Of a stretch of 64,000 bases of DNA, positions 2,155 through 36,136 are shown piece by piece (the stretch's first letter is position 1; the number at the start of each line of letters is the position of its first letter). Location of the stretch: assembly GCA_965262715.1 (NCBI GenBank), contig OZ253553.1, forward strand, positions 512,001 through 576,000, read 5' to 3'. The translations under genes and the position numbers were made by a program. A model generated the notes under the pieces. It saw nothing but the letters and a program-made list of their open reading frames with translations. It was not told the origin of the DNA and made no database searches. Source of the stretch: Bdellovibrionales bacterium (lineage in GTDB: Bacteria; Bdellovibrionota; Bdellovibrionia; Bdellovibrionales; JAUICD01).

Positions 2155-5100
2155 GTGATGTTAAAGTGGGAGATAGTTATTGTGGCACCGTTTTTTCAAA
2201 GGATAAATTGTCTTACTTCTAAAATTGATTCTTCAGTTAGCCTCAAACTATTTAACTATTTAAAAAAGACAATCACCTCTCCTAATTCCTTTAGTATAGG
2301 AATCAAATTCTATGCTCATTCTCGTGAGAGAGGAATGATGCTGGTAGAAGTTATCTTAATAGCTGTTTTTTTAGTTGCAACAGTAACAGGAGTTGCTTAT
2401 TTCTTTGCTCAAACAAAGACGACTATGAGTTCTTCTTCTCAGGTTATGGAATGTCAATTTATTGTAAAGCAGGCTCTAGAAAATGCCGTTTCACTAGGCA
2501 CAAGACTTTATGGCTATAAAATAAAACATCACAATCCCAACTTAAGATATGATCCTTTGTTTATAACCAAAAATGCAAAGGCTTATGATGTGGACGATAA
2601 TATAAAAAGTACCGGAAGGGGAAGTCAGTTGAACTTCCCTCCTCATATGTACCAAAGTCTTTATAAGAATCTTGTAGGGATGGATATATCTACACCTATA
2701 AAAGTCAGTCCTGAAACCAATACAGGAAAAATTCTTATCAGCGATAAAAGTTTACATCCCATTGAAATATCTACTTCCACATTGATTGTTAATTCTATCA
2801 ACGCTTTGCAATATCTTTACAACTCTGATCCTGATTATTCCATGAATAATGGTAAAAATGTAAGTTCTTCTATTTATAAGAAATACGAAGAACGATTTAA
2901 ACTAGATAATATGCAGTTTTATGTGAAGATCACACCTGTAAAAGATACTACTGTTTTGAGTGTAAGACCTATTTTAACTCGACCGCGTTTTCCCCAAAAT
3001 TCTAATGCTATCTCTTCAGATCTAACAATATTAGGAGAGGTGGATATTGGATTTGAAGTGAAAGCCCAATTAGAATATCAAACAAATCAGCAGAACTTTT
3101 CTTGTGATGCAAAGCGAAGATTCAATCATCAGATGACAGGAGAAAGTGGAAACCCTAAAGCTTTAGATGTCACTTTAAGTGGTTTAAAAAATGGAGCTGG
3201 TAAAGATTTTCTACAAGATGCAAGTTTAGTAAAGACATCTTGTGACACATACGGTGGTGGATATAAAGATATAACTGTGACATTGGATTTCAACACAGTG
3301 ACAGAAAGTCCTCAAATAGGAACTGTGATTTTATGTCAGATGAACTCTTACTGTAGAAGTGAAGGGGATGATGGTGATTACACTCATCTTGGAACAACCT
3401 GCACACCAGAGATGGGGCAATGGCAGAGATGTCATCACATTCAACCAAAAACAAATTCTGATCAGAGTTGGATATTTAAAGCTAAGTTAAAAGCTCAACA
3501 GGAATTAACATTGCAATTTCATGATATGAAAATCAATAGAAGGTATGATTTAAATATAGCTGAGTTTGCTATAGATGGGGAGAAAGTCAGAGAGCAAAAA
3601 GTTATATTTTATATAGATTCAGGCAGGAGACCTTATATAGATCTAGCTGATAGAAAAATCACAGACGATAATGTGGGACTACCTGATGATAATCAGAAAG
3701 GACGTAATTATAATGGACCTAACACTGATTGGAAGATCCCAACAGATGCACTTTCAGATGAATGGTTGCAATGCAATCAAAATGATGTGGACTTTGAAGC
3801 CACGTTAAAAGATCAATTCACTCATAATTTAAAAAATTGTGATACAGAAGGAATCAGAAAAGATGGTAATGGTGATAGCGTTATAACGGCTGATATAACA
3901 AATCACATCTCTGAGGGGCAATTTTGTAAAAGCACATTAGCTTCTATACAGCATGGAAGACAAACGATCACTTTCAAACCAAAAGACACTTGTGGATATG
4001 GAACCCCTAGAGATTTGGTATGGGATACAGATTTGCCAAGTACATTCGAGTCAAAAGGGTTTTTTGATGATAGTGATGAAGATCCTAATGATGGTGTGAT
4101 ATGGTTAAGAACACAGACAGGTTATCCCATAAAGACAAAGGTTCCAGTAAAGACAACATCTGGAAAATTTCCAAAACATTATTCTTTGGATTGCCAAGAT
4201 AAATATATAGGTAATGTAATGAGAGATGATGGCAATGGTGGGCCTTTAGTCTGTACTCTCACGAATGCTAATGCAAGTGATGCTGATGGAGCTAATCCTG
4301 GTGACCTTAGTATGAAATTTTATCACGTGTGTGGAACAAGTGAATGCACGGAGTCAAAATGGGCTGTTTACCCGCCGGTGGGTGGACCTTGTATAAATGT
4401 AGAATGTGAAGGCGGTTATATTTGTTGTAATGATTCACAAGGAGGAGATTGTGGAGGAGTCCAACATCAACAGTGTCAAGAAGACAAATGGCCACATGAA
4501 TGTGATGAGCCTCCTTGTGGATCAAATACTTCTGGTTTGGAGGGATGTCCTCCTTATGGGCTTTATGATTGTGGTTATGGTTATTGGCAGTGTGTAGGTC
4601 CTAAGGATGAGCATGGGCATAGGTATGATGATATTGACTGCTCATGTGCTACATCAGCAGGACCGAAATGTGGTAATGGTGGTAGTTTCGGTGTTGACCC
4701 TATGGATAAGACTGTTGTAACTTGTACAGGAGGAGGTTTTCCATCCATTGGAACAGGTTATCAGGTAGTCATCACTGCAGGAATAAGACCAAATCAAAGC
4801 TGCTCAAATTGTTTTGCTAAAAACTTAGACACAGGTAACCTTGAAGAACCTAAGTATAAATGTAGTACTTCTTTCTACAAGAGTTGTGGTTATAGTGATA
4901 ATCCACAACCATGTTCTTTTTTTCCTGGCTCTCACGCTTGTACAGGTGCACCAATGTGTCTAAGAGAGGGTTATGATCCAAATTCAGCAGATTGTCTTCG
5001 ATGGGATAGTCCTCAAGAAACAGTGTGTTTGGAAGCATGTCTTGAACGGGAAGACCCATATGAATTATTGTGTACAGGTAGCTTTATAGGAGGAAAATGT

Positions 5101-5187
5101 CAACCACCAGGAGGAGGTTGTAGTCCACGTCCACGTGGAGGTGGCGACAAAACCAAAGAAAAAGCCACTGACCGATCTGCTTGCTAG
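2155..5187 (+). CDS. Large type IV pilin-like (class III signal peptide) protein with Cys-rich C-terminal region; exact start uncertain
   Basis: ERG|MMLVEVILIAVFLVATVTGVAYFF prepilin motif at ~2326-2406; C-terminal ~300 aa very Cys/Gly/Pro rich. Confidence 0.7.
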   Translation: MMLKWEIVIVAPFFQRINCLTSKIDSSVSLKLFNYLKKTITSPNSFSIGIKFYAHSRERGMMLVEVILIAVFLVATVTGVAYFFAQTKTTMSSSSQVMECQFIVKQALENAVSLGTRLYGYKIKHHNPNLRYDPLFITKNAKAYDVDDNIKSTGRGSQLNFPPHMYQSLYKNLVGMDISTPIKVSPETNTGKILISDKSLHPIEISTSTLIVNSINALQYLYNSDPDYSMNNGKNVSSSIYKKYEERFKLDNMQFYVKITPVKDTTVLSVRPILTRPRFPQNSNAISSDLTILGEVDIGFEVKAQLEYQTNQQNFSCDAKRRFNHQMTGESGNPKALDVTLSGLKNGAGKDFLQDASLVKTSCDTYGGGYKDITVTLDFNTVTESPQIGTVILCQMNSYCRSEGDDGDYTHLGTTCTPEMGQWQRCHHIQPKTNSDQSWIFKAKLKAQQELTLQFHDMKINRRYDLNIAEFAIDGEKVREQKVIFYIDSGRRPYIDLADRKITDDNVGLPDDNQKGRNYNGPNTDWKIPTDALSDEWLQCNQNDVDFEATLKDQFTHNLKNCDTEGIRKDGNGDSVITADITNHISEGQFCKSTLASIQHGRQTITFKPKDTCGYGTPRDLVWDTDLPSTFESKGFFDDSDEDPNDGVIWLRTQTGYPIKTKVPVKTTSGKFPKHYSLDCQDKYIGNVMRDDGNGGPLVCTLTNANASDADGANPGDLSMKFYHVCGTSECTESKWAVYPPVGGPCINVECEGGYICCNDSQGGDCGGVQHQQCQEDKWPHECDEPPCGSNTSGLEGCPPYGLYDCGYGYWQCVGPKDEHGHRYDDIDCSCATSAGPKCGNGGSFGVDPMDKTVVTCTGGGFPSIGTGYQVVITAGIRPNQSCSNCFAKNLDTGNLEEPKYKCSTSFYKSCGYSDNPQPCSFFPGSHACTGAPMCLREGYDPNSADCLRWDSPQETVCLEACLEREDPYELLCTGSFIGGKCQPPGGGCSPRPRGGGDKTKEKATDRSAC

Positions 5188-5437
5188 CATTGTAACTCTA
5201 AGCAAAAATGCTGTTCTGGTGATTCTTACCCCAGCAATCCTAATTGCTCTTAAGCATTGAAGAGCTTGCCATCTGAGAAGTTCTCATAAGGTGAGTTAAT
5301 TAAGTGCTTATACAAATCACAAAATTTTTGCTAGGGGATTTACTATCATTCAATTGATAATTAGTTCTTGCATAGTTTGTTTAAGGATATACCTATGAAG
5401 CCATCTCAAAAGTACTGTTAAAGATATAAAGGTAAAT
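4659..5437. repeat. 779-bp direct repeat, left copy (long target-site duplication of the IS)
   Basis: Matches 7273-8051 at offset 2614; ends exactly at the IS left inverted repeat. Confidence 0.95.
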
Positions 5438-7272
5438 CCTGAGTTTGGCAGTTGAAAAAATAAAGTTGAATAATTTTAATTACTTAAAGGCGCATTGGAA
5501 TTTTGTGCCACTAGGTTTTTGTTTTGTGGTAGAGATTTAAGAGATTTTTTGTAGGTCTAAGTAGATTCTACTTTAAGTTGTTTTGATGGGATCTTTGCTC
5601 CTATAGCTTTAAATACATCAGCGTTATTGCCATAAATGTCTGTTCTTATCCAAATAGTTTTGTCTTTATATTTGACAGGTATAGCTCGTACTTCTTTCAG
5701 CTTTAACATAGCTTCTGCCACACTCAATGGCCTTGATTTTATTCTCTTATCTGTCCAATGAAACATAGGACGTGTTTTTAATGTACCCTTCAATTCTCTA
5801 AATGAATTCTCTATTTTCCATAACTGCTTATAGTTCATTATAATCTCTTCAGAACTTAAATTATCTGTATTTGTAATTATTCCAAAAAAACCATCTGTCC
5901 TCTCTGATTGTTCTATGGCTGACTTATTTAAAGTAGGTTTGCTTTTACTCTTAGGATGAACAATATACTTCTTATAATTACTATTAGATAAAAAAGATCT
6001 TGTGCTTATGGACTTCTTTGATAATTGAGCTTCTATTTTAGATAGAATATCTTCTCTTACTTTCTTATCTCGTTCTGCTCTCTTTCTCGACCAGGTAATT
6101 ATACAACGATCATTATTATAACTTGTCTCGTATATAGCTAAATCTTCATTTATAAATTTAAAATTCTTTAAATTGTATATCTCTGCATGACGATCCTTTA
6201 ATAAACCTAGCTTTAAACCTACTATAAATTCATCTCCCTTTGCTTTTAATGATTGGAGATTCTCATTAGAAAATAAACCTCTATCTCCTACTAATATAAA
6301 TCTTCTGATCTTAAACTTCTTTTTTAGCTTCTCCATAACTGAAGGTATGGTTTTACCTTCAAAGGTATTTCCAGGATAAACATCAAAGCCTAAGGGCATA
6401 CCTTCTGTATCTACTAAAAGTCCAAATACCACTTGTGTACAATCACTCCTCTTCTCTTTGCTATAACCAAATCTTCGAAGATTATCTAAATCCTCTCGGG
6501 TACTCTCAAATCTCAATGTCGTTAAATCATACAAAATAACATCACACTCATTGAAAAAACTTAACTGAGACTTACCTTGTGTATAAAGAGTCTTCTCTAT
6601 ATCTTCCTTATGCTTACTTAGAATATCTAAAGAACGATAAATATCATCGATCTTAAGATCCTTCTCTAAAAAATCAGGGTAAAATAACTTTTGCCAATGA
6701 GAATATAACTTTAACTTAGAACATGGCTCTATGAATCGATTCACAACCAATGTAAAAACTATCTTCATAAAATCAAATGAAACTTTAGGATGCTTCTGCT
6801 TCAAATCTGTTAATAATTCATAGAGGTTTAATTGTTTGAAAATAGTATCTATAATAAGTAAGGGGCCTAATATAAAAGTGTCTTTAACATCAATCTCTTT
6901 AGCTATTTCACTGGCAGATACAACATCTAAATGACGGCTTATAAGTTTAGATATGTCTTCTAATCGAGCATCTTTAGCCCGGCCTAAAGACATGAGGGTT
7001 CTGTGGTTACTTTTACCATCTTTCCAATAGCTTTCAGCTATGTGATAGTAAGTTTGGCCTCTGGAGTTTTTTGTCTTCTTTATGAACATAGAGATATACT
7101 AGAATATAAAAATAAAAAATCAAGTAAAATAAGCGTATAACGCAATGTATATATAAAGTTTGTTTCACTAGGTTTTTGACCAAAATTAAAAACCAATAAC
7201 TCCTAACTACTGTAAATAAAGCATTCCTTAAAAAAAATATCCCGAAAATTCAAATCAACTGCCAAACTCAGG
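5438..7272 (-). mobile_element. IS1634-family insertion sequence, 1835 bp, perfect 18-bp terminal inverted repeats
   Basis: cctgagtttggcagttga (5438-5455) / tcaactgccaaactcagg (7255-7272) flank a DDE transposase gene. Confidence 0.92.
5557..7089 (-). CDS. IS1634-family DDE transposase
   Basis: Motifs YDLTTLRFE, FGYSKEKRSD..QVV, GNTFE, GDRG, Y..LWKIENSFRELK...RPMFHW. Confidence 0.9.
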   Translation of the reverse strand: MFIKKTKNSRGQTYYHIAESYWKDGKSNHRTLMSLGRAKDARLEDISKLISRHLDVVSASEIAKEIDVKDTFILGPLLIIDTIFKQLNLYELLTDLKQKHPKVSFDFMKIVFTLVVNRFIEPCSKLKLYSHWQKLFYPDFLEKDLKIDDIYRSLDILSKHKEDIEKTLYTQGKSQLSFFNECDVILYDLTTLRFESTREDLDNLRRFGYSKEKRSDCTQVVFGLLVDTEGMPLGFDVYPGNTFEGKTIPSVMEKLKKKFKIRRFILVGDRGLFSNENLQSLKAKGDEFIVGLKLGLLKDRHAEIYNLKNFKFINEDLAIYETSYNNDRCIITWSRKRAERDKKVREDILSKIEAQLSKKSISTRSFLSNSNYKKYIVHPKSKSKPTLNKSAIEQSERTDGFFGIITNTDNLSSEEIIMNYKQLWKIENSFRELKGTLKTRPMFHWTDKRIKSRPLSVAEAMLKLKEVRAIPVKYKDKTIWIRTDIYGNNADVFKAIGAKIPSKQLKVEST

Positions 7273-7801
7273 AGGACCGAAATGTGGTAATGGTGGTAGT
7301 TTCGGTGTTGACCCTATGGATAAGACTGTTGTAACTTGTACAGGAGGAGGTTTTCCATCCATTGGAACAGGTTATCAGGTAGTCATCACTGCAGGAATAA
7401 GACCAAATCAAAGCTGCTCAAATTGTTTTGCTAAAAACTTAGACACAGGTAACCTTGAAGAACCTAAGTATAAATGTAGTACTTCTTTCTACAAGAGTTG
7501 TGGTTATAGTGATAATCCACAACCATGTTCTTTTTTTCCTGGCTCTCACGCTTGTACAGGTGCACCAATGTGTCTAAGAGAGGGTTATGATCCAAATTCA
7601 GCAGATTGTCTTCGATGGGATAGTCCTCAAGAAACAGTGTGTTTGGAAGCATGTCTTGAACGGGAAGACCCATATGAATTATTGTGTACAGGTAGCTTTA
7701 TAGGAGGAAAATGTCAACCACCAGGAGGAGGTTGTAGTCCACGTCCACGTGGAGGTGGCGACAAAACCAAAGAAAAAGCCACTGACCGATCTGCTTGCTA
7801 G
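7273..7801 (+). pseudogene. Duplicated 3' fragment of the Cys-rich pilin-like gene (ORF 7316-7801)
   Basis: The 161-aa ORF is identical to the last 161 aa of 2155-5187 and lies inside the direct repeat. Confidence 0.85.
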
Positions 7802-8051
7802 CATTGTAACTCTAAGCAAAAATGCTGTTCTGGTGATTCTTACCCCAGCAATCCTAATTGCTCTTAAGCATTGAAGAGCTTGCCATCTGAGAAGTTCTCA
7901 TAAGGTGAGTTAATTAAGTGCTTATACAAATCACAAAATTTTTGCTAGGGGATTTACTATCATTCAATTGATAATTAGTTCTTGCATAGTTTGTTTAAGG
8001 ATATACCTATGAAGCCATCTCAAAAGTACTGTTAAAGATATAAAGGTAAAT
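7273..8051. repeat. 779-bp direct repeat, right copy
   Basis: Matches 4659-5437; starts immediately after the right inverted repeat. Confidence 0.95.
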
Positions 8052-8063
8052 GGTTATTTTGCT

Positions 8064-10676
8064 TTACTGAAAGGACTTGAGGACAAAACGTAGAATGCCG
8101 CCACTTTGGTAGTATTTTAATTCATTTGGTGTATCGATACGGCAAATTGTTGAAATATTTTTTTGACCTTTTTGCTGATCTTCTAAAGATACACTGATTT
8201 TTTGACCACATTGCAGGTTGTTCAGATCTAAGATATTCACTGTTTCTTCTCCTGTAACAGCAATTTGATCTTGATCACCTGTGATTTGTAGAGGTAAAAC
8301 TCCCATTCCGATAAGGTTAGAGCGATGGATCCTCTCAAAGCTTTTAGCAATAACTGCTTTAACACCTAAAAGAAGAGTTCCTTTAGCTGCCCAATCTCTA
8401 GAAGATCCCATACCATAGTTTTTGCCTGCAAATACCACTAATGGGATATTGTCGTTTTTATATTTCATAGCTGCATCAAAGATGCTCATGATTTCATTTT
8501 TATATTTAGTAAAACCTCCTTCAAGGCCGCCGGCCATTTGATTGCGGAGCCTTATATTGCCGAAAGTTCCTCTCATCATTACTTCGTGGTTCCCTCGCCT
8601 GGAGCCAAAAGAGTTAAATTGTGCATTTATCACACCTACACTGTTTAAATGGCCTGCAGCAGGAGTGTTTGGGGCAATGGCCCCTGCAGGAGAGATATGA
8701 TCTGTGGTGATATTGTCTGGCAGGACAGCCAAAATCCTTGCATCTTTGATATCAGACGTTTCATCTTTAACATTATCTTCAAAAAATGGTGGTTTTTTGA
8801 TGTAGTTGCTATCTTTTTGCCACTGATAACAGATGGTTTCTGGTGTGTGCATCTCTTGCCATACTTTGGAACCTTCAAAAACATTTTTATATTTTTGTTG
8901 AAACATTTCAGGTGTTAAAAATTGTTTCAAAACGCTTTGAACTTCTTCATTTTTTGGCCAAATATCTTTAAGGTAAATAGGTTTTCCAGATGAGCTATGA
9001 CCTATAGGGCCTTTATAAAGATCGATTTTCATAGAGCCTGCAAGCGCATAGGCCACCACTAAACAAGGAGATGCTAAATAATTGCATTTGGTTTGAGGAT
9101 TAACCCGTCCCTCAAAGTTTCTATTACCTGAAAGCACAGAACAAACAGTGAGGTCTTCAGCTGTAATAGCCTCAGAGATACGAGGTGGTAGAGGGCCTGA
9201 GTTACCAATACAAGTGGTACAGCCATATCCTACCAAATGAAACCCACAAGTATCTAACTCTTTTTGCAGGCCTGATTCTGTGAGGTAGGCAGTGACCACT
9301 TGAGACCCAGGTGCCAGTGAAGTTTTCACCCAAGGCTTAACTTTTAATCCAAGAGCATTTGCCTTTTTAGCAAGAAGCCCTGCAGCAATCATTACAGGAG
9401 GATTAGACGTATTTGTACAGCTTGTAATGGCTGCAATCACAACATCACCATCAGAGAGTTTGCCATCTTTTTCTTGAACTGATGGTTTAGAAACCTGTTT
9501 TTTCTCTTGCAAAAAATTTTTAAAAGCGGATGCTGCCTGTTTTAAGTCAATGCGATCTTGTGGTCTAAAAGGTCCTGCAATGGAAGACACAATATCTGAA
9601 ATGTTCAATTCAAGATGTGTCGTAAATTCTGGTGAAGGCTCGTCTGGATTGTACCAAAGTCCTTGTTTTTGGGCATATATCTTTACAATTTCGACTTGTT
9701 TTACGCTGCGGCCTGTGAATTTTAAGTAATTAAGGGTTTCTTGATCAATAGGAAAAAAGCCACATGTTGCGCCATATTCTGGAGACATATTTGAGATGGT
9801 AGCTCTATCAGCTAAAGAAAGGTGCTTTAAGCCAGGTCCATAAAACTCTACAAATTTTCCAACTACGCCTAATTTTCTTAATTTTTCTGTAATATAGAGA
9901 ACAAGGTCAGTTGCTGTAGAACCTTCTTTTAAGCTTCCTGTTAAGTAAACTCCTACAACATCAGGGATCAAAATACTAATGGGTTGTCCTAAGATGGCAG
10001 CTTCAGCTTCAATGCCTCCAACTCCCCAGCCCAAAACAGAAAGTCCATTGATCATAGTGGTATGACTATCTGTACCTACGAGGGTGTCTGGATAAATAAG
10101 GTTATTTTCTGTCCAGATGACCTTAGCTAAATATTCCAAATTGACTTGATGACAAATACCTGTTCCTGGAGGGACGACACGGAAATTCTTAAAAGCTTTC
10201 TGTCCCCATTTTAAAAATTCATAACGCTCTTTATTACGTTCAAATTCTCTTTTGACATTAAAATCAAAAGCCTTAGGTGAAGCAAATTGGTCAACACTTA
10301 CAGAATGGTCAATCACTAAATCTACAGGGATCAAAGGATTAATTTTTTGAGGATCATTAGAAAGAGCTTCTCTCATGGCAGCTAAATCCACAATAGCTGG
10401 AACGCCCGTAAAATCCTGCATCAAAACCCGGCAAGGGTGATAAGAAATAGAATGCTTTACAGATTTGTTATCTACCCAAGAAGCCAGTGTCTTTATATCA
10501 TCAGTAGTGACCGTCTCACCATCTTCAAAGCGCAAGAGATTTTCTAGGAGTATTTTAAGGCTTTTAGGTAAAGAATTAATGTTTCCATACTTTTCTGCTT
10601 TTTTAAGACTGTAATAATCATAATGAGTATTTCCAATGAGCAGCTTATCTTTTGTATCTAATGTATTTTTTGACAT
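8064..10676 (-). CDS. acnA: Aconitate hydratase A
   Basis: RVLMQDFTGVP, GICHQVNLE, GTDSHT, AAITSCTNTSNP, GCTTCIGNSG, GSSRDWAAKG. Confidence 0.97.
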   Translation of the reverse strand: MSKNTLDTKDKLLIGNTHYDYYSLKKAEKYGNINSLPKSLKILLENLLRFEDGETVTTDDIKTLASWVDNKSVKHSISYHPCRVLMQDFTGVPAIVDLAAMREALSNDPQKINPLIPVDLVIDHSVSVDQFASPKAFDFNVKREFERNKERYEFLKWGQKAFKNFRVVPPGTGICHQVNLEYLAKVIWTENNLIYPDTLVGTDSHTTMINGLSVLGWGVGGIEAEAAILGQPISILIPDVVGVYLTGSLKEGSTATDLVLYITEKLRKLGVVGKFVEFYGPGLKHLSLADRATISNMSPEYGATCGFFPIDQETLNYLKFTGRSVKQVEIVKIYAQKQGLWYNPDEPSPEFTTHLELNISDIVSSIAGPFRPQDRIDLKQAASAFKNFLQEKKQVSKPSVQEKDGKLSDGDVVIAAITSCTNTSNPPVMIAAGLLAKKANALGLKVKPWVKTSLAPGSQVVTAYLTESGLQKELDTCGFHLVGYGCTTCIGNSGPLPPRISEAITAEDLTVCSVLSGNRNFEGRVNPQTKCNYLASPCLVVAYALAGSMKIDLYKGPIGHSSSGKPIYLKDIWPKNEEVQSVLKQFLTPEMFQQKYKNVFEGSKVWQEMHTPETICYQWQKDSNYIKKPPFFEDNVKDETSDIKDARILAVLPDNITTDHISPAGAIAPNTPAAGHLNSVGVINAQFNSFGSRRGNHEVMMRGTFGNIRLRNQMAGGLEGGFTKYKNEIMSIFDAAMKYKNDNIPLVVFAGKNYGMGSSRDWAAKGTLLLGVKAVIAKSFERIHRSNLIGMGVLPLQITGDQDQIAVTGEETVNILDLNNLQCGQKISVSLEDQQKGQKNISTICRIDTPNELKYYQSGGILRFVLKSFQ

Positions 10677-26876: not shown

Positions 26877-29800
26877 TTAGCTGGATAAGGGAAGTTTTAA
26901 AGGAGCAGTTTGATATCCTTGGGCAAAGTCAGGTCGTCCGCCACCTTTACCATATTTTCTTAATATATCAACTGCATTGTATTTATCTGTGAGATTCTTT
27001 GTAATAGCAACCATAAGAGGAGGTTTGTCTGGATCTTCTCCAGATAGGATCACTATACCTGATTTCATTTTGTTTCTGATTTTATCTGCAATTTGCCTTA
27101 AGCATTCTCTGTCATTTGTACGGATTGTTTTTTTGACTTCTTTAACTTCATTATCTATATCTTTTGATTCTTTAATAATCTTATTAATATCTATATCCAT
27201 TTCAATTCTTGATACGGTTAGTTTTTGTATTTGTTTGTGCAAATCTTTAACTTCTTTTTTCTTTTCATTGATCCAAGTGCTAAGGTTGTTATTGATTTGA
27301 GCTTCATTTTTTGCTTCAGCCAGCTCTCTGTGGCTTTGTGAAAGGACCTCAATGGCTTTTCGTCCGGAGAGAGCTGTGATACGACGGACATTAGCACTTA
27401 TGCTTTCTTCTGATGTGATTAAAAAGGCTTGAAGTTCACTTGTGTTTTTCACATGTGTTCCTCCACAAAGTTCCATGGAGGTATCTTCTCCTATTTTCAC
27501 AACATGCACATTTCCTTCTGGATATTTTTCGTTGAAAAAAGCAAGAGCCCCCTTTTTTTCAGCATCTTTGAAGCTCATTATGTCTGTTGTAACAGGGAGA
27601 GTTTTTATAATTTGGTCATTAACTTGTCTTTGAATTTGCTTTTTTTGTTGATTTGTAAGAGGTTTTGGATGTGTGAAATCAAATCGCAGATAGTGATCTG
27701 TGACCAAAGATCCTTTTTGTTTTGGTTTCATCTCCCTTTCTTCTTTTTCTCCTGCAGTGTTTATAATTTTTACCTTTTCTTTTAAAGTATCTCTTAAGAT
27801 AGTGTGCAATAAGTGTGTAGCTGTGTGATGTTTTGTTATCTCCTCTCGTCTTTCTTTGTTAATTTGTAGAAAAACTTTGTCATTAACATTTAAATGAGTT
27901 TTTACATCGATAGCATGGTAGTGCACTTCCTTATATTTTTGACAATCTGTAACTTGAGCTATTAATTTATTTGATGGATCTTTAATTTCACCTTGATCTC
28001 CAATCTGTCCTCCAGACTCTGCATAGAAAGGTGTTTGATCAAAAATAACAAAGCCTTTTTGACCAGGCTTTAGTTCTGTAATTTGTTTTTGGCCATCTGA
28101 TAAACCTATGACTTGCGCGTCAGTAGATAAAGTTTTGTATCCTACAAATTTTCCAACATGATTAAGTAATTTTCCAATTGACCGATTGGTAGATTGTTCA
28201 ATGATATCACTTACAAAACCTCTAAGATGTTTCTCATCTTCTTGTAAATACTTTGGTTTTGCCCTTGAAAGTTCTTGTGCTTTTCTAAGATGAGTTTCAA
28301 AAGCTTTTTCAAATACTTGATCGAACTCTTGATTAAAGCTTATCTTTTTCATCTTTCTTTTTATGAGATCTTTAGTGTTATCTTTAGAAAAACCGTGTGT
28401 TTCAAAGAGTTTAAAGGCAAACTCTCCCAGTGCTTCTGGTGTGAGAGTTTTAGATTTCATTTTTTGGTCAAGATCATCAAATTCTTTATTGAATATTTCC
28501 TCACTATCTTCAAGTTTTTTTTGAAAGGCCACTTCGATTTCTTCTGCAATTTGGTAAATTCGGCTTAGAATTTGAGACTTTTTGTTAGTTCGTTCTTGCT
28601 CTCTTCTTATAATGAGATTGATCTCTTCTCCTTCTTGGTAGAGAATCTCTTGTTGAATCTCTCTAATGAGAAGGCTCATCAACTTAGCCACATTTTTTTG
28701 GACGGGAGAGTCTTCTTGATATTGAAGGCTTTTTTGTCGATAAAACTCTTCTTGTTTTTGAAATTGATAGTGATAGATAAAAGGATCTGGGTTTTGGGTC
28801 ATGATAATGTCATATAGGTAATAGCAGTCATAAACAAAAAGAACATCAACCAATAGCACTCTTTTTAACTGAAGGAAGTTAAATGAACCAATACCAATTT
28901 GTTGAAGACAGTGCCTGACCTTTTTAAACAACTTTCTTAAAACATAACCTCTACCTTCATTTGATGGTAATATACCGTCAAGCAATAAAAAAGCTATGCC
29001 TCTAGCATGATCTGCTATTTGACAGAGAGCTATCCGATCTTTTATTTTTCTCTCTTCATCTATCTTTATCTTCTTAGGAGAAAGAAGCCCTCTTTCTTTT
29101 TGGAACTCCTCACACACAAAATCTAGAAAAGCAGTTCTAAGAGAACCATTTTCTGCTCTCTTAAGTATATAATATATCATGTTGAAATGAAGGCTTTTCT
29201 GAAATAAATATGATGCGCTTGGAGCTCTCCACTTATGAGCATCTTCCTCATTGTTTATTTTTTCTTCTTCCTCTTTGATAATTTCTTTTATTTCACTTGA
29301 CCTTTTATATAAGTCTTCTAGAAATTCCTTAATTATCTTTTTGGCTATTTCTTCTTCTACTTGCTCTTGTTTGTTTAATTGATAATGTTGGCTTTTAAAG
29401 GTTTTCCATACATCTGACTCTAGTTTGCAATTTAATACTTTATAAAAAGTATCGATAAATAAGTCAGCTTCAAAATTACTATTTACTCTTTGGGTAACAG
29501 CTGTGAGTCTTTCTAACCCAGCCCCTGTATCTACACAAGGGTGAGGTAGAGGTAGTCTACTACCATCAGCTTGTTGATCAAATTGCATAAAGACTAAGTT
29601 CCAAATCTCTACATCTTGCTGTCCATAATGATAAAAGACTTCACTGCAAGGCCCGCAAGGTCCTGTATTAGCCATTTTCCAAAAATTATCACTATCTTTT
29701 TTGATAAAATCATATAAAGAACGCTTGATATCATTTTTGTCATTTTCCCAGATTTTTTTCCAAATATTAAAGGAATCCTCATCTTCATTAAAGACTGTCA

Positions 29801-30176
29801 CATACAATCTATTTTTATCGATGCCTAAATACTTTTGGTCAGTTAAAAACTCCCATGCAAATTCAATAGCCTCTTTTTTAAAATAATCTCCAAAGGAAAA
29901 ATTGCCTAGCATTTCAAAAAAGGTATGGTGTCTGGGAGTATGACCAACTTGTTCTAAGTCATTAGCTCGAAAACATTTTTGTGCAGACACAGCTCTATTG
30001 TAAGGGAGCTTTTTAAGGCCTAAAAATACGTCTTTAAATTGATTCATACCTGCATTTGTAAAAAATAGATCTTTACCTTCTGGAGTTAAGGGGGAGCTTT
30101 TACAGTGTTTATGACCTCTACTTTCGAAGTACTCTATAAATTTATAACATGTTTCATTACAGTTAAGGGGTTTCAT
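26877..30176 (-). CDS. alaS: Alanine--tRNA ligase with large insertions (start MKPLNC at 30176 preferred)
   Basis: [80 protein letters not shown]. Confidence 0.95.
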   Translation of the reverse strand: [1099 protein letters not shown]

Positions 30177-30295
30177 AAAGGGGTCCTTATTGGGGAGCAT
30201 TTTTCTATAGTTAATTTTAATGAAATTCTTTATTCTTGTCAATCCTATCAATGATTGATTATAGATATAGAAAGGACTTTTGGAAGGAGAAATTC

Positions 30296-30361
30296 ATGAT
30301 AAAATTTTTAGCAACAGGTTGTTATATAGGCCTAATTCCTAAGGCTCCATGTACTTTTGGC
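30296..30361 (+). pseudogene. 5' remnant (22 codons) of pgpA
   Basis: MIKFLATGCYIGLIPKAPCTFG vs pgpA VIKFLATGCYIGLIPKAPGTFG; upstream attgattatagatata also duplicated. Confidence 0.88.
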
Positions 30362-30531
30362 TGTTTAACTCTCTCGCTTTTTTCTATCATTAGGAAAATG
30401 CTTTCAATAACATTCTTTAATTATTGGCCTCATTATCATTACTGAGTCTTATAGCAGGGCTTTTTTTAGCTTTTTTATATACCCAGTTGTCGGGGGTCAT
30501 CGAAAATATCTCTTTTGGGTTTGTTTTTAGG

Positions 30532-32370
30532 CTATAAATCGAATGTTTTTAAAAACCTAGATATTTTTCTCTCTTTTTCATCTCCCCAGGGCATTTTTCT
30601 TTTTTTAGGCCAAGTGACATATAAAAATCGCTTTGACCTAGTGAAGGCCACATACAGATTATTTTCTTCTTGCTTAAGATCAATACCCTTTTTTTGTATA
30701 GCTCGATAATCAGGGAATGTTTCATCATCCATACCTATTAGAAAGACGATATCAAACTCCTGCCCTTTCATTGTGTGAACTGTACTTAATGTAATACCTT
30801 TGTGTGGAATTGATTGATGAGTTTGGCCTAATGCCATTGCATTTTTGAACTGTAGTAATGACTTTGTGTCTGTTGTACTGGCGTATTTATTCCAATGTTT
30901 TATCAAATCATCAATGTCATTAAAGATCATATTTCTTTCATTTTCTTCGCTATAATCAGTAAGTGTATTTTTAAAACTTTTCAAAAGATATTTTAGATTA
31001 TTCCCATCATCATCTAAATTTATAACTAACTGGATAAGAGCCTTATGTTGTTTATTATTTATAGTTGATATAATTTCTTCCAGTGATTTTTCTTTTGAGA
31101 TATTTGATTTTAGTTTCTCAAGGAGTTTTCCTTTATGTAATTTATCTTGAGGATTTAATTTAACTTTAAGTGCAAGGTCAAACATATTGATTAGATCAGA
31201 TTCAAATTGAACTGAACCTATTCGCATTTTATAATAAAAAGGTATACCCTTAGATTTTAATTGAGTATTGATTTGATTAAAAAGATATTTATTACGGGCA
31301 AGGATAACTATTTTTTCGTAAGTGATTTGACCTTCAATATCTGGATGTTTTTGTATAGAGACTAGTTCATTGATTTTATCAATAATCCATAAGGCTTCTT
31401 TTTCTTCATCTTCTATGCCTTGCAATTCAAAGATACCTTGTTTCACTGTGTGAGGTATGTCTTTAGCACTAGGAAATATCTTTTTAGTAGCAGATAAAAC
31501 CTCTTGAGATGAACGATAGTTTTCTTCTAGTTCTATGACTTCAGGTTTAAAGTCTTTAATAAAAAACTCGGTCATATATTTTGGTGAAGATCCATTGAAA
31601 TGAAAAATGGATTGGTTAGGATCTCCAACCATCATCACATTGTCGAATTGACCTCCTGTTAGAGCCAGCAAGAATTGATATTGGGCATTATTTAAATCTT
31701 GGGCCTCATCAATACAAATTGCATAAAAACTACGGCGGTACAAGTCCGCCACATTTGGATATTCAATAAATAGTTTGTATGCTAGAATAAGCAGGTCATC
31801 AAAGTCTATACCATTTTGACTGCTTAATATATCTTGATAATTTTTATAAAGAAGTATTTTTTCATCATCTTTAGATTGAGAGTCTTCTTCAAGTTTACCC
31901 ATATTCCTTTTAACTTTGGCTATAAATTTCAATACTTGGTATAAAAATCTTTTTTTCTTTTTCTCATCTTTATTCCTATAAATATTTTCATAAGATGGGG
32001 TTAAATTGATAGCTTGTTCTATTAGCTCTAATCTATCATTTTCGTTTTCAAATATATGAGGCATTTTTTCTAAGCCAATAAGATATCCATGATTTCTCAA
32101 TGTTTTTTGACAAAATCCATGGAATGTTCCTACAAAAACTCTTTTATCTAAAGTAGATATACCATTTAATCTTTCTTTGACTTCTTCTCCCGCTTTATGG
32201 GTAAAGGTAAGAGCAAGTATCTGCTTCTTAGTTTTATCTAATAAAATTCTCACTCGTTCTGTAAGAACTCTTGTCTTTCCACTTCCAGCACTGGCTTTGA
32301 CACAAATGGGCTTATCCTCAAGGTTGACAATACTTTTTTGAGTTTCAGATAATTCAATTTTTGCTGACAT
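30532..32370 (-). CDS. UvrD/Rep-family SF1 helicase, GajB-like
   Basis: ASAGSGKT, IDEAQD, GDPNQSIF, LEENYRS, STVHTMKGQEFD, LYVAFTR; overlaps the upstream OLD nuclease gene by 17 bp. Confidence 0.88.
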   Translation of the reverse strand: MSAKIELSETQKSIVNLEDKPICVKASAGSGKTRVLTERVRILLDKTKKQILALTFTHKAGEEVKERLNGISTLDKRVFVGTFHGFCQKTLRNHGYLIGLEKMPHIFENENDRLELIEQAINLTPSYENIYRNKDEKKKKRFLYQVLKFIAKVKRNMGKLEEDSQSKDDEKILLYKNYQDILSSQNGIDFDDLLILAYKLFIEYPNVADLYRRSFYAICIDEAQDLNNAQYQFLLALTGGQFDNVMMVGDPNQSIFHFNGSSPKYMTEFFIKDFKPEVIELEENYRSSQEVLSATKKIFPSAKDIPHTVKQGIFELQGIEDEEKEALWIIDKINELVSIQKHPDIEGQITYEKIVILARNKYLFNQINTQLKSKGIPFYYKMRIGSVQFESDLINMFDLALKVKLNPQDKLHKGKLLEKLKSNISKEKSLEEIISTINNKQHKALIQLVINLDDDGNNLKYLLKSFKNTLTDYSEENERNMIFNDIDDLIKHWNKYASTTDTKSLLQFKNAMALGQTHQSIPHKGITLSTVHTMKGQEFDIVFLIGMDDETFPDYRAIQKKGIDLKQEENNLYVAFTRSKRFLYVTWPKKRKMPWGDEKERKISRFLKTFDL

Positions 32371-35300
32371 TGGTTTTATCCTTATTATTATAGTAATCTT
32401 TTATTTTATTAAACAAATTTTCTATTTTTGGAGGAAGTTTGTTACCTTTTATAATTTCTTTTGCCACTGCCTCTCCCATTCTAATCTTATCATCTTTCAT
32501 AATTTCAAGAAGTCGTTCATCATCGTAACTTTCAACTTCTTCTTTTTTTGCAGCTTTATGTTGTTCATTCTTGCAATGAAGTGATAAATAGGCTTTCTTT
32601 ATTTGCTCTTGGAAGCCATTAGAAATGAGTTGCTTTTCAAAATCATTACCATCATCCAAAAAAACAACAAACACTTTTGGATCCTTCTTTATTTTAAGTA
32701 CCTTGGTTTCAACTTCTCCAACAGTATTTTGATCTGCATCACTAAAGATAAAGCAAGGTATATTTAGAGATTTAGCAAACTTTATAAAAGGAGCATAATT
32801 TTTTCCTCCAACTCCTACAAAGTTTAAACCTATATCGGAAGGATGTTTCTGAAAGAACTTTTCTGCAAAGATAGGTAGTGCTCGAGATTCAGTTTTTCCT
32901 TCTGAAAAAACAATAAAGTTTGAAAAAATAATCTCTCCGTGAGTATGAGTCACATGAACTTCAATTTTGCTTTCATCTTCAGATGATAATCCTGTTACTT
33001 TTCCGCAGGTTACTTGATTGCTTTTATACAATCCTCTAATTTGCCTTATCTTTGCTTTTGCAGCTACATAGGGAGAGTGGGTTGAAATGATCTTTTGGCC
33101 TTCAATAGAATTTATTTGATGATAAAGCTGTTTTTGAGCGTTTGGATGCAAATGAGCTTCAGGCTCTTCTATTGCAAGAATTGGGAAAAACACATTGTCT
33201 TGCTCTTGGAATTTTTTTGTAAGCGATGAAATAAATGCTTTTAAAGTAAGAAGTGATGACCAACTTCTTGTTCCCATACCATGATATTCCATAGAAAAAC
33301 TATCTGTTTGTTCACCATAATAAATGGATAGCCCTTTATTTAAATCTCTTACCTTTTTTGTAAAAGGTGTGATTTCAACATTGGCTTTGTCGTTACCCAT
33401 AGTTGAGTTAATTTCTCCTAGTACAATCTTGATATGTGACAAAATGGCACTGCTATCAACGGCTTTTTCATTAAGTGATTTGATTTGATCTTCAATATCT
33501 TTGATGTCTTTTTCAGTATATTCTATTTTTGAAATCATTTTCCCAAGATAAGAACTTTTAAGCTTTATGTCTTTAAGAATATCTCTTTGAGCATCGATGT
33601 AAAAGAAAGGTATTTCATCAAAATAAAAGCGGATTTTATCCCCATCATCTTTATCAAACCAATTTGTATTCTTGTCTTTAAATTTTGGCCAGCCGTTTAT
33701 AGAAAATTGTTTTTTTTTAAAACTATTTGTTATTGGATCGAATTTTATTTTTGTTCTAAATGGGAACTGGTTTCTATTGGAATCATCAGGATCAGGTTTA
33801 ATATTTGCTGCTTGAAATACAGATACCCAATCATCTGTGAAGTTCTCACATATATTCCCTTCATCATCAACAGGGACAATAAGAGTATCTATTATAATTT
33901 CCTCTGAAGCAGAGTTTTCTTTTATAAAAAAATCATCCTGAGAGATAAACTGGTGATTGCCAAAAGCCAATTGCAATGCATATAGAATAGAAGACTTACC
34001 AGTATTATTTGCTCCTGTTAAAACAGTGGTTTTTTCTAAATCTATTTCAATATTTTCAAGCCCTCTAAAACCTCTAATACGAATAGTTTTGATTAAAATA
34101 TCCTTTGGTTCTTGCTGCTGTATTTTTTCTTCTTTCTTTTGTTGTTCCTTCTTCTTTTCCTCTTTTTGTTCTTTTGCTTTTTCTGCTTTTATTTCATTGA
34201 AAAGTTTTGCCATATCTTGTTTTACTATATAGTCATATCTTTTTTCAAACTGGGGATAATGATCTTTTGTAATTTTTAAGATATCTGCTATAAAGCCATT
34301 TAACTTATAGAGAGGAAAAATTAATGAAGATAGGGCTTCTTTTGCTTGAAGGATCAGGTCTCTTAATTTGTGACCATGCTGTGTATTGGAAAGAGTGATT
34401 TTATTTGCTAAAAGAAAAGCTATATCCAATGCATATATGGGTAACTTTGAGATAGACCTAAAAGCTTCTTGCTCTTTATTTCTACAAATTTGATAAAATC
34501 CTTTTTCATCAAATGATATGGTTTTTTCTTGAGCTATTTTTCTGAGGGGATCCATAAAAAATTTCTGCTCATAAATTTTTAAAATATGTTTGCCTGTATC
34601 AGGAGTAGGTTTTTTATCTGTTGAAGGTACTTCGAACTCTTTATCTGTTGAAGAAATGAAACCACATTCTTTAAAAAAGCTTACAGTATTTTCAGAATTG
34701 TTCCATATATAAGAAGCTATAAAATCTTTTCTTTCTTTGAGAAGAGCACGCTGTATATTATAGATGAGATATTTTTCATCCCCATCAGAAAGTTGCCAAT
34801 TGCTTTCTGATATTATTTTTGTTATAATATCTATAAAATATTGATCTCCATTAAAGAGTTTATTAAAGAATGCCTTTTTTGTAGGTTCCGATTGGTTGTT
34901 CATATAATCATAATAAGATTGGTTAGTTATTAGATTATTATTTGTATTTGCTATAATCCCTTCAATATATTGATCAGCTAGGCCTCTTAAAAGAATCAAT
35001 CTTGTTACTGAAAGATTATTTTCGACTTGAAGATTGTGAGTAATATATCTTTCGTCTTTATCAGAAAAGGTCTGTGCTAAATGAGTATTGATTTCTTCAG
35101 ATCTGTTTGGTTCTTTGAGATGAATATATTTATTTTGATAGAGTTTGAAAATAAACTCCCCTGAAATAGGCTTTTTATTGGCTATCAGTTTATCAAGTTC
35201 TTTTTTAAGTTGTTGATTATTTTGTAAGCTTCTTGAGTGTGTTATTTGCATTTTTTTACAGATGAGATCTAAAAATTGCTTTTTTCTAACAACATCATCT

Positions 35301-35572
35301 CCTTTTAAAACACTCATTAGTTTTTCAAAAAAAGATTCTTCACTACTTCTATTGTAATAAGGAGGAAAAGGAAGAAACTCCTGACGAACTCTTGGAATAT
35401 CTGAAAAAGGCAAAACCCAATCTATATCTTGGTTGTTAGAAATGCTTAGGTTAGCAATAATAGGCAAAAGCTGATCTTCAAATAAAATATCTTTATGTCC
35501 TTGTCCTTCTTCAAGTGCCTTGAAATATTCAATAAACCTTTGACGTATTTCATCACTGGTTAAATGTTTCAT
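32354..35572 (-). CDS. OLD-family ABC ATPase-TOPRIM nuclease (GajA-like) with N-terminal AlaRS-derived extension
   Basis: C-terminal ~580 aa: IRGFRGL, GANNTGKS, GMGTRS, IEEPEAHLHP, STHSP, SEGKTE, DAD; N-terminus MKHLTSDEIRQRFIEYF and other AlaRS-like segments. Confidence 0.85.
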   Translation of the reverse strand: MKHLTSDEIRQRFIEYFKALEEGQGHKDILFEDQLLPIIANLSISNNQDIDWVLPFSDIPRVRQEFLPFPPYYNRSSEESFFEKLMSVLKGDDVVRKKQFLDLICKKMQITHSRSLQNNQQLKKELDKLIANKKPISGEFIFKLYQNKYIHLKEPNRSEEINTHLAQTFSDKDERYITHNLQVENNLSVTRLILLRGLADQYIEGIIANTNNNLITNQSYYDYMNNQSEPTKKAFFNKLFNGDQYFIDIITKIISESNWQLSDGDEKYLIYNIQRALLKERKDFIASYIWNNSENTVSFFKECGFISSTDKEFEVPSTDKKPTPDTGKHILKIYEQKFFMDPLRKIAQEKTISFDEKGFYQICRNKEQEAFRSISKLPIYALDIAFLLANKITLSNTQHGHKLRDLILQAKEALSSLIFPLYKLNGFIADILKITKDHYPQFEKRYDYIVKQDMAKLFNEIKAEKAKEQKEEKKKEQQKKEEKIQQQEPKDILIKTIRIRGFRGLENIEIDLEKTTVLTGANNTGKSSILYALQLAFGNHQFISQDDFFIKENSASEEIIIDTLIVPVDDEGNICENFTDDWVSVFQAANIKPDPDDSNRNQFPFRTKIKFDPITNSFKKKQFSINGWPKFKDKNTNWFDKDDGDKIRFYFDEIPFFYIDAQRDILKDIKLKSSYLGKMISKIEYTEKDIKDIEDQIKSLNEKAVDSSAILSHIKIVLGEINSTMGNDKANVEITPFTKKVRDLNKGLSIYYGEQTDSFSMEYHGMGTRSWSSLLTLKAFISSLTKKFQEQDNVFFPILAIEEPEAHLHPNAQKQLYHQINSIEGQKIISTHSPYVAAKAKIRQIRGLYKSNQVTCGKVTGLSSEDESKIEVHVTHTHGEIIFSNFIVFSEGKTESRALPIFAEKFFQKHPSDIGLNFVGVGGKNYAPFIKFAKSLNIPCFIFSDADQNTVGEVETKVLKIKKDPKVFVVFLDDGNDFEKQLISNGFQEQIKKAYLSLHCKNEQHKAAKKEEVESYDDERLLEIMKDDKIRMGEAVAKEIIKGNKLPPKIENLFNKIKDYYNNKDKTNVSKN

Positions 35573-35686
35573 AATTGACCTATTTTGATTAATGCATACT
35601 TTCACTATAAAGTGCTTAACTACTTATAAAGTTTATCAAATTTCTTACTGGTTGTCATTTATTGATTATAGATATAAAAAAGAAAC

Positions 35687-36136
35687 ATGTATGCTGTGAT
35701 AAAGTTTTTAGCAACAGGTTGTTATATAGGCTTGATTCCAAAAGCCCCAGGCACTTTTGGGACTTTACTTGGTATTCCGCTTTCTTATCTTTTTTTATTG
35801 TTAGGAGAATATGGCTATTACATAGCTACTTTATTGTTTATATCTTTATCTATTGTTATTGCTGAACTTTATGATAGAACTTTAAAAGAGCATGATCATC
35901 AAACAATTGTTATTGATGAAGTAGCAGGTTATCTAGTTGCCTTTGCAGCACTGCCGTTTCAGGTGTTTTGGGTAGTGCTTGCGTTTTTGCTTTTTAGGTT
36001 TTTTGATGTTCTTAAGCCATTTCCTATCAATCGTCTTGATCGTATGAAAGGTGGTTTAGGGATTGTTTTAGATGACCTAGGCGCTGGACTTATTACAAAT
36101 GTTATTTTACAAATTTTATTTTGGCAGATAGGTTAA
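35687..36136 (+). CDS. pgpA: Phosphatidylglycerophosphatase A (GTG at 35696 is an alternative start)
   Basis: PKAPGTFGT, IVIDEVAG, FRFFDVLKPFPI, GGLGIVLDD. Confidence 0.95.
   Translation: MYAVIKFLATGCYIGLIPKAPGTFGTLLGIPLSYLFLLLGEYGYYIATLLFISLSIVIAELYDRTLKEHDHQTIVIDEVAGYLVAFAALPFQVFWVVLAFLLFRFFDVLKPFPINRLDRMKGGLGIVLDDLGAGLITNVILQILFWQIG

Follow-up and report, generated by a model that had tools for sequence, protein, structure and literature searches.

A Gabija-type nuclease with an N-terminal extension derived from alanyl-tRNA synthetase in an uncultured bacterium of the Bdellovibrionales

In a window of 64,000 nucleotides from contig OZ253553.1 of a Bdellovibrionales bacterium (positions 512,001 to 576,000; coordinates below are those of the window), two adjacent genes on the minus strand encode a Gabija-like pair. 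The first gene (32354..35572; ATG at 35572, stop at 32354-32356) specifies a protein of 1072 residues in which an extension related to alanyl-tRNA synthetase (AlaRS) and a linker precede the nuclease-ATPase GajA. The open reading frame containing it spans 32354-35605 on the minus strand, and translation is taken to begin at its conserved ATG, at 35572 (MKHLTS). The second gene (30532..32370) specifies the UvrD-like helicase GajB of 612 residues, and its start overlaps the end of gajA by 17 nucleotides.

Judged by its sequence, this pair is a class 2 OLD/Gabija defence system (GajA nuclease-ATPase plus GajB helicase) with about 490 extra residues at the N-terminus of GajA. The PADLOC GajA model PDLC00067 matches residues 491-1061 with an E-value of 3.8e-201 over model positions 2-600 of 604, and the GajB model PDLC00132 matches the downstream gene at 1e-229; the Old (2.8e-34) and AriA (1.2e-31) models rank far below GajA for the fusion protein. 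Pfam recognizes AAA_15 (E 7e-29) and OLD-like_TOPRIM (E 1.8e-13) in the GajA core (32357..34102), and UvrD-helicase (E 6.2e-59) together with UvrD_C in GajB. The catalytic motifs are intact: Walker A GANNTGKSS lies at residues 520-528, and the TOPRIM motifs SEGKTE and SDADQ lie at residues 890-895 and 944-948; the Glu and DxD motifs of TOPRIM have aligned counterparts in the OLD structure 6p74. A first-pass annotation of this DNA had proposed a complete ABC ATPase plus TOPRIM nuclease overlapping a UvrD-type gene, that is, the GajA/GajB architecture of Gabija, and the full-length matches to both models bear this out. The pair thus resembles Gabija systems such as that of Bacillus cereus VD045 in its adjacent, overlapping genes, its full-length PADLOC matches and its intact Walker A and TOPRIM acidic motifs, and differs from them in the extension of about 490 residues. 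The part of an OLD review consulted (PMC10568477) describes GajA as ATPase plus TOPRIM only. Gabija is understood to act as a GajA:GajB complex, with ATP-inhibited site-specific DNA nicking and helicase-assisted nucleotide depletion (PMC10568477 and PMC12445682).

The AlaRS-like part and GajA lie in one open frame, as the first-pass annotation had stated, and there is no canonical start codon at the junction between them: the junction (QQQEPKDILIKTIRIRGF) contains no ATG, GTG or TTG, and the nearest upstream Met is residue 454, 37 codons before the core. All eight homologs keep a single open frame over some 480 codons in DNA of about 29% GC, where the chance of so many stop-free codons is about 1e-18 per sequence. 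Among the eight N-extensions, 112 alignment columns are invariant, and in seven of seven homologs the start M(K/E)(H/D)L occupies an equivalent place. DNA from an independent sequencing study (run X5) is identical over 30010-34889. Fragmentary contigs of relatives about 85-90% identical cover the region, and the contig of a relative about 90% identical bridges 34987-35898, crossing the fusion-gene start and reaching pgpA (X7 record 24). Among the differences listed (40 of about 700), the indels in the extension preserve the frame, with a deletion of 3 at 35320 and a paired -1/+1 at 35438/35440. The linker that had been described as K/E/Q-rich, and as joining the AlaRS-like part to the nuclease, occupies residues 453-490 (34103..34216); it varies in length and sequence, with pairwise identities of 22-73%, and is predicted to form a single long helix over residues 454-486. 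The fusion is therefore, as far as these sequences tell, real and under selection.

The ancestry of the extension becomes visible only through its relatives. With the window protein alone, Pfam returned no family at E<=10 for residues 1-490, and the best BLASTP match to the neighbouring alaS had an E-value of only 0.017, over the first 27 residues; AlaRS homology is undetectable from this one protein, so that relatives are needed for significance. We therefore used an alignment of the eight N-extensions (profile A2) for sequence, profile-profile and model comparisons. Searched against all PDB sequences, this profile gave 13 distinct matches, every one of them an AlaRS (best E 1.1e-5). Against 1.84 billion representative proteins it gave 28 matches at E<=1e-3, namely five family members or fragments and 23 other proteins, all 23 of which carry PF01411. 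When aligned by hhalign to an AlaRS alignment, A2 scored a probability of 97.5% and an E-value of 6.8e-12 over residues 316-451. PF01411 itself exceeds its gathering score in the extension of P0008 (43.9 versus 30.3 bits, residues 374-495 to profile positions 262-375) and matches the extensions of P0003 and P0004 below that score; across the fusion homologs, its matches cover only profile positions 242-375 of 552.

Structure comparison points the same way. An AlphaFold2 model of the N-extension, built from the eight-sequence alignment, is all-helical, with a mean predicted local distance difference score (pLDDT) of 76.8 and a predicted template-modelling score (pTM) of 0.76. Foldseek placed an AlaRS (2zzf) first with an E-value of 0.07 and returned nothing at E<=0.001. 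In an unbiased structure search of 48,161 chains, AlaRS took ranks 1-3 (Z 9.9, 7.9 and 7.4), and the related beta chain of bacterial glycyl-tRNA synthetase appeared at ranks 11, 12 and 16. A second look with VIA-align at 961 chains placed AlaRS entries in all of the top 16 positions (Z 6.1-10.3), with unrelated helical proteins from Z 5.6 down. Set against this is the warning of the tool that Z values below about 13 fall in the range where helical bundles can match spuriously; for a helical protein these values are not decisive alone, and they are consistent with the sequence evidence. The earlier proposal that the N-terminal 450 or so residues derive from AlaRS is thus upheld by profile, hhalign and structure searches, all of which put AlaRS first, with Foldseek alone giving a weak match. 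Residues 1-452 are an all-helical, catalytically dead derivative of AlaRS held in one polypeptide with GajA, and we regard this anatomy and ancestry as highly probable.

The pieces of the extension differ in how well they can be assigned. We compared each by hhalign profile-profile alignment with an alignment of the long alaS genes of this lineage, using 20 column shuffles per comparison. Two segments are robust. Residues 1-30 match alaS 1-19 with a score of 40.0 (shuffle maximum 17.2), and a hidden Markov model aligns this N-terminal helix to AlaRS residues 1-25 of PDB chains; the homologous helix comprises residues 1-27 (35492..35572), and its start piece MKHLTSDEIRQRFIEYF lies at 35522-35572, where it had been reported. 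Residues 360-475 match the Mid1 helices (IADH..FLL.DG..PSN..GRGYVLR) with a score of 64.1 (shuffle maximum 22.9). The Mid1 subdomain, a helical tRNA-recognition element of AlaRS, is assigned to residues 363-451 (34220..34486; IAFLL..SN..G..LR ... YPQF) and includes the piece IAFLLANKITLSN...YPQF, found as previously described at 34247-34423. Moderate support attaches to residues ~78-110 (RKKQFLDLICKKMQ; 35243..35341), which resemble lineage-specific insertion 1 of the neighbouring alaS: they score 30.3 (shuffle maximum 18.5) against alaS profile positions 330-363 and match P0012 residues 315-385 in HMMER, as a domain of 16.8 bits. In alaS, that insertion sits between motif 3 and Mid1. What the extension retains of AlaRS is the N-terminal helix and the Mid1 helices, which in the synthetase read the acceptor stem of tRNA-Ala; it probably also keeps part of the insertion peculiar to the alaS of this lineage. 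Between the two robust anchors, some 290 residues have no AlaRS counterpart or a marginal one. Within this stretch, an ESM Atlas search with residues 28-320 scored at best 0.80, no better than noise, and the fold search of residues 28-315 was made only as part of the whole 490-residue model.

Two further pieces resemble the 'KLY' motif of Mid2 (KLYDTYGF in AlaRS), and both matches are marginal. The first, at residues ~127-149 (ISGEFIFKLYQNKY; 35126..35194), contains LYQNKY and scores 25.6 against Mid2 (shuffle maximum 21.7); the ISGEFIFKLYQ piece noted earlier was found in place at 35135-35167. The second, at residues 316-360 (34493..34627), contains IYEQKF and an invariant Glu335 and includes the piece GKHILKIYEQKFF...FDEKGF, present as reported at 34496-34594. 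It scores 22.4 against Mid2 (shuffle maximum 19.7) and 18.7 against the post-motif-3 linker 'NFETDLF' (shuffle maximum 19.7), so that the two fits are nearly equal: the segment is either the post-motif-3 linker of AlaRS, to which hhalign and HMMER align it collinearly (P0014, P0015), or a permuted Mid2. The equivalent of Gly403 is absent from the candidate Mid2 pieces. An internal repeat within the extension is likewise marginal (24.3 versus a maximum of 21.1 in 30 shuffles). The first-pass annotation had called the AlaRS-like segments shuffled. All four pieces are present; the two robust ones (residues 1-27 and Mid1) are collinear with AlaRS and the permuted order depends on the marginal 'KLY' matches, so that the claim of shuffling is only partly supported. 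The upstream position of the insertion-like piece, together with the internal repeat, suggests that some rearrangement or internal duplication may have taken place.

What the extension lacks is equally clear. The motifs HHTFFEM, G.GLER, FTNAGM and GPCGPC occur in none of nine family N-extensions. Pfam found neither an editing domain (tRNA_SAD) nor a C-Ala/DHHA1 domain in the fusion protein or its seven homologs, and found both in the neighbouring alaS. The absence of aminoacylation and editing motifs had been noted from the first and is confirmed here. Since the catalytic core is missing and one AlaRS subdomain is kept, the protein is to be seen as a Gabija variant with a pseudo-synthetase domain and not as a synthetase. 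Its likeness to AlaRS (PF01411) comprises the N-terminal helix and Mid1, by both profile and fold, and a tRNA-contacting residue: Asn303 of E. coli AlaRS contacts O4 of U70 (PMC6055181), and the Asn aligned to it and to human AlaRS Asn317 is kept in seven of the eight N-extensions. It differs from AlaRS in the loss of class II motifs 1-3, the editing domain and C-Ala, and in the erosion of a basic motif.

A large protein collection contained seven further proteins in which the same extension is fused to GajA, 47-71% identical to the window protein over the extension and with the frame conserved, in answer to the earlier suggestion that other genomes be searched for the fusion. All eight fused proteins come from close relatives, and their N-extensions are 47-80% mutually identical. 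The family has three shorter entries in addition, P0009, P0010 and P0011; P0009 (478 residues) is an AlaRS-like extension without the GajA part, and represents either a truncation at a contig end or a stand-alone domain. Among 383 further genomes of the order the fusion was found in none, the 16 other matches there being housekeeping alaS, and pattern scans for more loci gave 87 matches in genome contigs and 355 in metagenome contigs, with no relative among either. The fusion is restricted to a narrow clade of an uncultured low-GC bacterium. Within the clade the gene is a mosaic: the extension of P0005 is closest to that of P0007 (67%), and its ATPase is closest to that of P0002 (91%). Within the extension, conservation is highest in the AlaRS-like blocks, at 80% for residues 1-30 and 67-73% for residues 331-390, with several other bins at 44-54%. 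The GajA core falls in a subfamily that is widespread (1607 matches at E<=1e-20), and among its best 120 relatives 111 are proteins of 589-646 residues without an extension. A truncated fusion, P0006 (751 residues, the C-terminal ones divergent from the family alignment), may share a contig with the intact P0008 (1035 residues), the longest contig being 189965 for both, which hints at tandem or duplicated cassettes.

The fusion gajA and gajB form a cassette situated between the housekeeping alaS (26877..30176, minus strand; 1099 residues from MKPLNC; Pfam tRNA-synt_2c at E 1.5e-126, tRNA_SAD and DHHA1) and an intact pgpA (35687..36136, plus strand; Pfam PgpA at E 5.6e-42), with a cinA-like gene and recA also on the plus strand. 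Flanking the cassette on both sides are diverged duplicates of a block made up of alaS 5' codons, an intergenic stretch and the 5' end of pgpA (direct repeats D2 and D10). The left copy (30096..30445) comprises the true alaS 5' end, the intergenic stretch and a truncated 5' pseudo-fragment of pgpA at 30297-30445, where it ends; the right copy (35480..35845) comprises the 5' end of the fusion gene, the intergenic stretch and the true 5' end of pgpA, and continues into the intact gene. Left and right copies agree at 54 of 79 positions in the alaS 5' part, 66 of 88 in the intergenic part and 103 of 134 in the pgpA part (68-77%), and genome G000 has only two copies of the block. In a genome of the same genus (G001), alaS and pgpA adjoin each other in divergent orientation without anything in between, and in one of the same family (G002) only recX intervenes. 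Promoter-like sites occupy homologous positions upstream of both genes, at 30214-30242 for alaS (TTGACA-17-TAAAAT, 11/12) and at 35630..35658 on the minus strand for the fusion gene (ATGACA-17-TAAACT with TG, 9/12); they count as weak evidence because such sites number 30 in the region against a shuffle mean of 28.1. A tRNA-gene integration site was considered as well and ruled out, since 20000-45000 contains no tRNA genes.

The segment resembling insertion 1 points to the alaS of this lineage as the source of the extension, and the neighbouring alaS is its apparent parent; the flanking duplicates and the cassette-free locus of G001 also speak for a local origin. A partial tandem duplicate of alaS would have fused to an incoming gajA, bringing with it a 5' region resembling that of alaS, together with a start codon and a promoter-like site, and would then have lost its catalytic core; the repeat-flanked cassette may since have been gained or lost among close relatives by homologous recombination between the duplicated blocks. 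The equal sizes of the contigs carrying alaS P0037 and fusion P0007 (216001), and P0038 and P0004 (24435), suggest that each of these pairs belongs to the same locus. The housekeeping alaS is itself unusually long, at 1099 residues here and 1256 in G001 (L007 8048-11818), versus 881 in G002. Two lineage-specific insertions flank its Mid1 helices, and the Pfam tRNA-synt_2c match falls into three to four stretches; long insertion-bearing alaS of this kind was found in six more metagenomic proteins, 77-87% identical. The truncated pgpA copy forms an open reading frame of 69 codons (MIKFLATGCYIGLIPKAP...) at 30236-30445 on the plus strand; Pfam matches nothing in it, and it is presumably a pseudo-fragment.

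How infection is sensed by Gabija is still debated, the known inputs being nucleotide levels and DNA ends. The best overall explanation of the locus, to which we assign a probability of roughly 45%, is a Gabija pair with a dead-AlaRS input module of local alaS origin. The GajA-GajB core would work as in known Gabija systems, by nucleotide-gated DNA nicking and helicase action, and the AlaRS-derived domain, tethered by the flexible K/E-rich helix, would serve as an input or specificity module. The idea of a module draws on the GajA subfamily as a whole, which carries alternative N-terminal add-ons. For the ligand, we prefer a reading in which the domain would bind an RNA helix resembling the tRNA acceptor stem, from host or phage tRNA, and so gate or direct the TOPRIM nuclease; this predicted role is tentative, with the odds somewhat against it. 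It is suggested by the retention of Mid1 and of the U70-contacting Asn and by the fact that the OLD relatives P2 Old and AriB cut tRNAs: P2 Old cuts tRNA-Thr at its anticodon stem, and AriB of PARIS cleaves tRNA-Lys (PMC12445682). These enzymes share the ATPase-coupled TOPRIM superfamily with the fusion protein and show by precedent that OLD enzymes can act on tRNA helices; they have no synthetase-derived domain, and the fusion protein falls in the GajA branch, where the enzyme characterised so far nicks DNA.

Several observations weigh against this proposal. Characterised GajA cleaves DNA, and not tRNA, according to the parts of PMC10568477 and PMC12445682 consulted. The extension evolves faster than the ATPase (50-80% versus 77-91% identity among six members with the window-type GajA core), and slower change would be expected of a domain that reads a conserved tRNA. 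In most members, decay has turned the Arg-rich AlaRS motif RGYVLRR into HGHKLRE, YAPQLRE or HGPQLKE; the isoelectric point of the N-extension ranges from 5.2 to 8.1, positive charge is not conserved, and net charge and isoelectric point, taken as a proxy for nucleic-acid binding, gave no consistent signal across the family. Asp400 in the Mid2 motif 'YDTxG' is the main positive determinant for G3:U70 (PMC6055181), and with two marginal candidates a clear Mid2 bearing its equivalent is not established. Some GajA proteins of close relatives, moreover, lack the extension. P0080, whose core is 81% identical, bears only an N-terminal domain of about 80 residues and no AlaRS-like extension, and P0081 starts with MKHLTS and then runs directly into the same ~80-residue domain, which looks like a natural in-frame deletion of the AlaRS-like part; the extension is thus not essential to the core machine.

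This ~80-residue domain (..FHLDF..ERCKIVESY..SAINHFLEQEG..YRNQV.SFNQWLLLNKG) immediately precedes the GajA core in some relatives, whether or not the AlaRS-like extension is there, and is not matched by Pfam; P0002, P0005 and P0007 carry it behind the linker. An unrelated N-terminal domain of about 220-240 residues is found on GajA proteins 58-60% identical to this one, in P0082 and in the same-genus genome G001. Taken together with P0080 and P0081, these variants show that N-terminal add-ons are swappable in the GajA subfamily. P0081, P0007 and alaS P0037 lie on contigs of equal size (216001), and P0081 is possibly a second cassette beside a full fusion.

Of the alternatives to the tRNA-related proposal, the one that survives best takes the AlaRS ancestry as purely historical: the extension would be a structural or regulatory appendage (for autoinhibition, oligomerisation or localisation), or a carrier of the alaS-type promoter and start, with no tRNA or AlaRS ligand. 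That residues 28-315 have no significant match (none in Pfam, the noise-level ESM Atlas score, generic helical structure matches), that natural variants without the domain exist, that the linker is variable and that the duplicated 5' region has a promoter-like site at the homologous place would all fit such a history. The same history sits less well with the AlaRS-like blocks being the best conserved parts (by mean pairwise identity) and with the retention of the AlaRS Asn in seven of eight members, and an open, folded domain of 450 residues would be costly to maintain in AT-rich DNA were a start codon all that is required, as P0081, which keeps MKHLTS only, illustrates. We consider this alternative doubtful.

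A further alternative, which we judge unlikely, is an integrated decoy or guard, in which the dead copy would mimic a surface of housekeeping AlaRS; a phage factor able to bind or modify AlaRS would bind the copy too and so release the GajA-GajB nuclease. The descent of the domain from an adjacent essential gene, the loss of catalysis with retention of fold elements, the swapping of N-terminal modules in the GajA subfamily and the erosion of Arg residues that would hold tRNA are all compatible with this idea, as are the rapid evolution relative to the ATPase core and the mosaic between relatives, both expected of an arms-race surface. However, the retained parts, the N-terminal helix and Mid1, make up just ~120 residues out of ~450, and the catalytic face, which would be the likeliest target of a phage factor, is gone. 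An AlaRS-targeting phage factor was not found in the literature searched, and we know of none. Finally, a pseudogene remnant (the upstream 490 codons being an alaS duplicate in decay) or an assembly or frameshift artefact, with the real GajA starting near 34100-34210, would agree with the lack of a significant AlaRS match to the window protein alone and with Met454, but is extremely improbable and largely refuted by the frame shared by eight of eight homologs, the chance of about 1e-18 for so long a stretch without stops, the identical sequence of the independent run, the junction without a canonical start and the confident AlphaFold2 fold of the region.

Dead copies of housekeeping proteins fused to an effector as sensors have precedents in the Gcn2 kinase, which carries a pseudo-synthetase domain resembling histidyl-tRNA synthetase, and in the integrated decoys of plant nucleotide-binding leucine-rich-repeat receptors. 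The comparison is an analogy only, because synthetase, effector and domain of life differ, the proteins are not homologous and tRNA sensing here is hypothetical. The broader notion that an immune nuclease has domesticated a dead AlaRS copy as a sensor, which would either read tRNA (the identity of the acceptor stem, the state of charging or tRNAs of phages) or bait a phage factor that attacks AlaRS, is possible, though we lean against it. If it is true, the translation apparatus would be coupled directly to Gabija activation, and prokaryotes would have their own equivalent of the Gcn2 pseudo-synthetase or of plant integrated decoys, seen close to the time of its origin and still next to its parent gene. 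Should the domain bind tRNA, it would tie the GajA branch, which nicks DNA, to the OLD enzymes lately found to cut tRNA. More generally, the case shows how a piece of a housekeeping gene can be copied, deprived of its catalytic function and put to use in immunity while its parent gene still adjoins, and a clade with a synthetase-derived module, set among relatives with other modules or none, amounts to an experiment of nature on the retargeting of an OLD nuclease by input domains. No description of a domain derived from AlaRS, or from any aminoacyl-tRNA synthetase, on GajA or Gabija was found in the full text searched, which mostly left out subscription papers, so that absence from print is not proven; within that limit, the suggestion of a possibly undescribed defence variant stands.

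The Gabija pair of G001 (GajA of 805 residues, GajB of 647 residues) lies at a different locus, L021 (G001:C1:1958000-1972000), at 2454-10602. The defence island around it contains a type I restriction-modification specificity subunit, pairs of a nucleotidyltransferase with NTase_sub_bind, and a DUF4145 protein.

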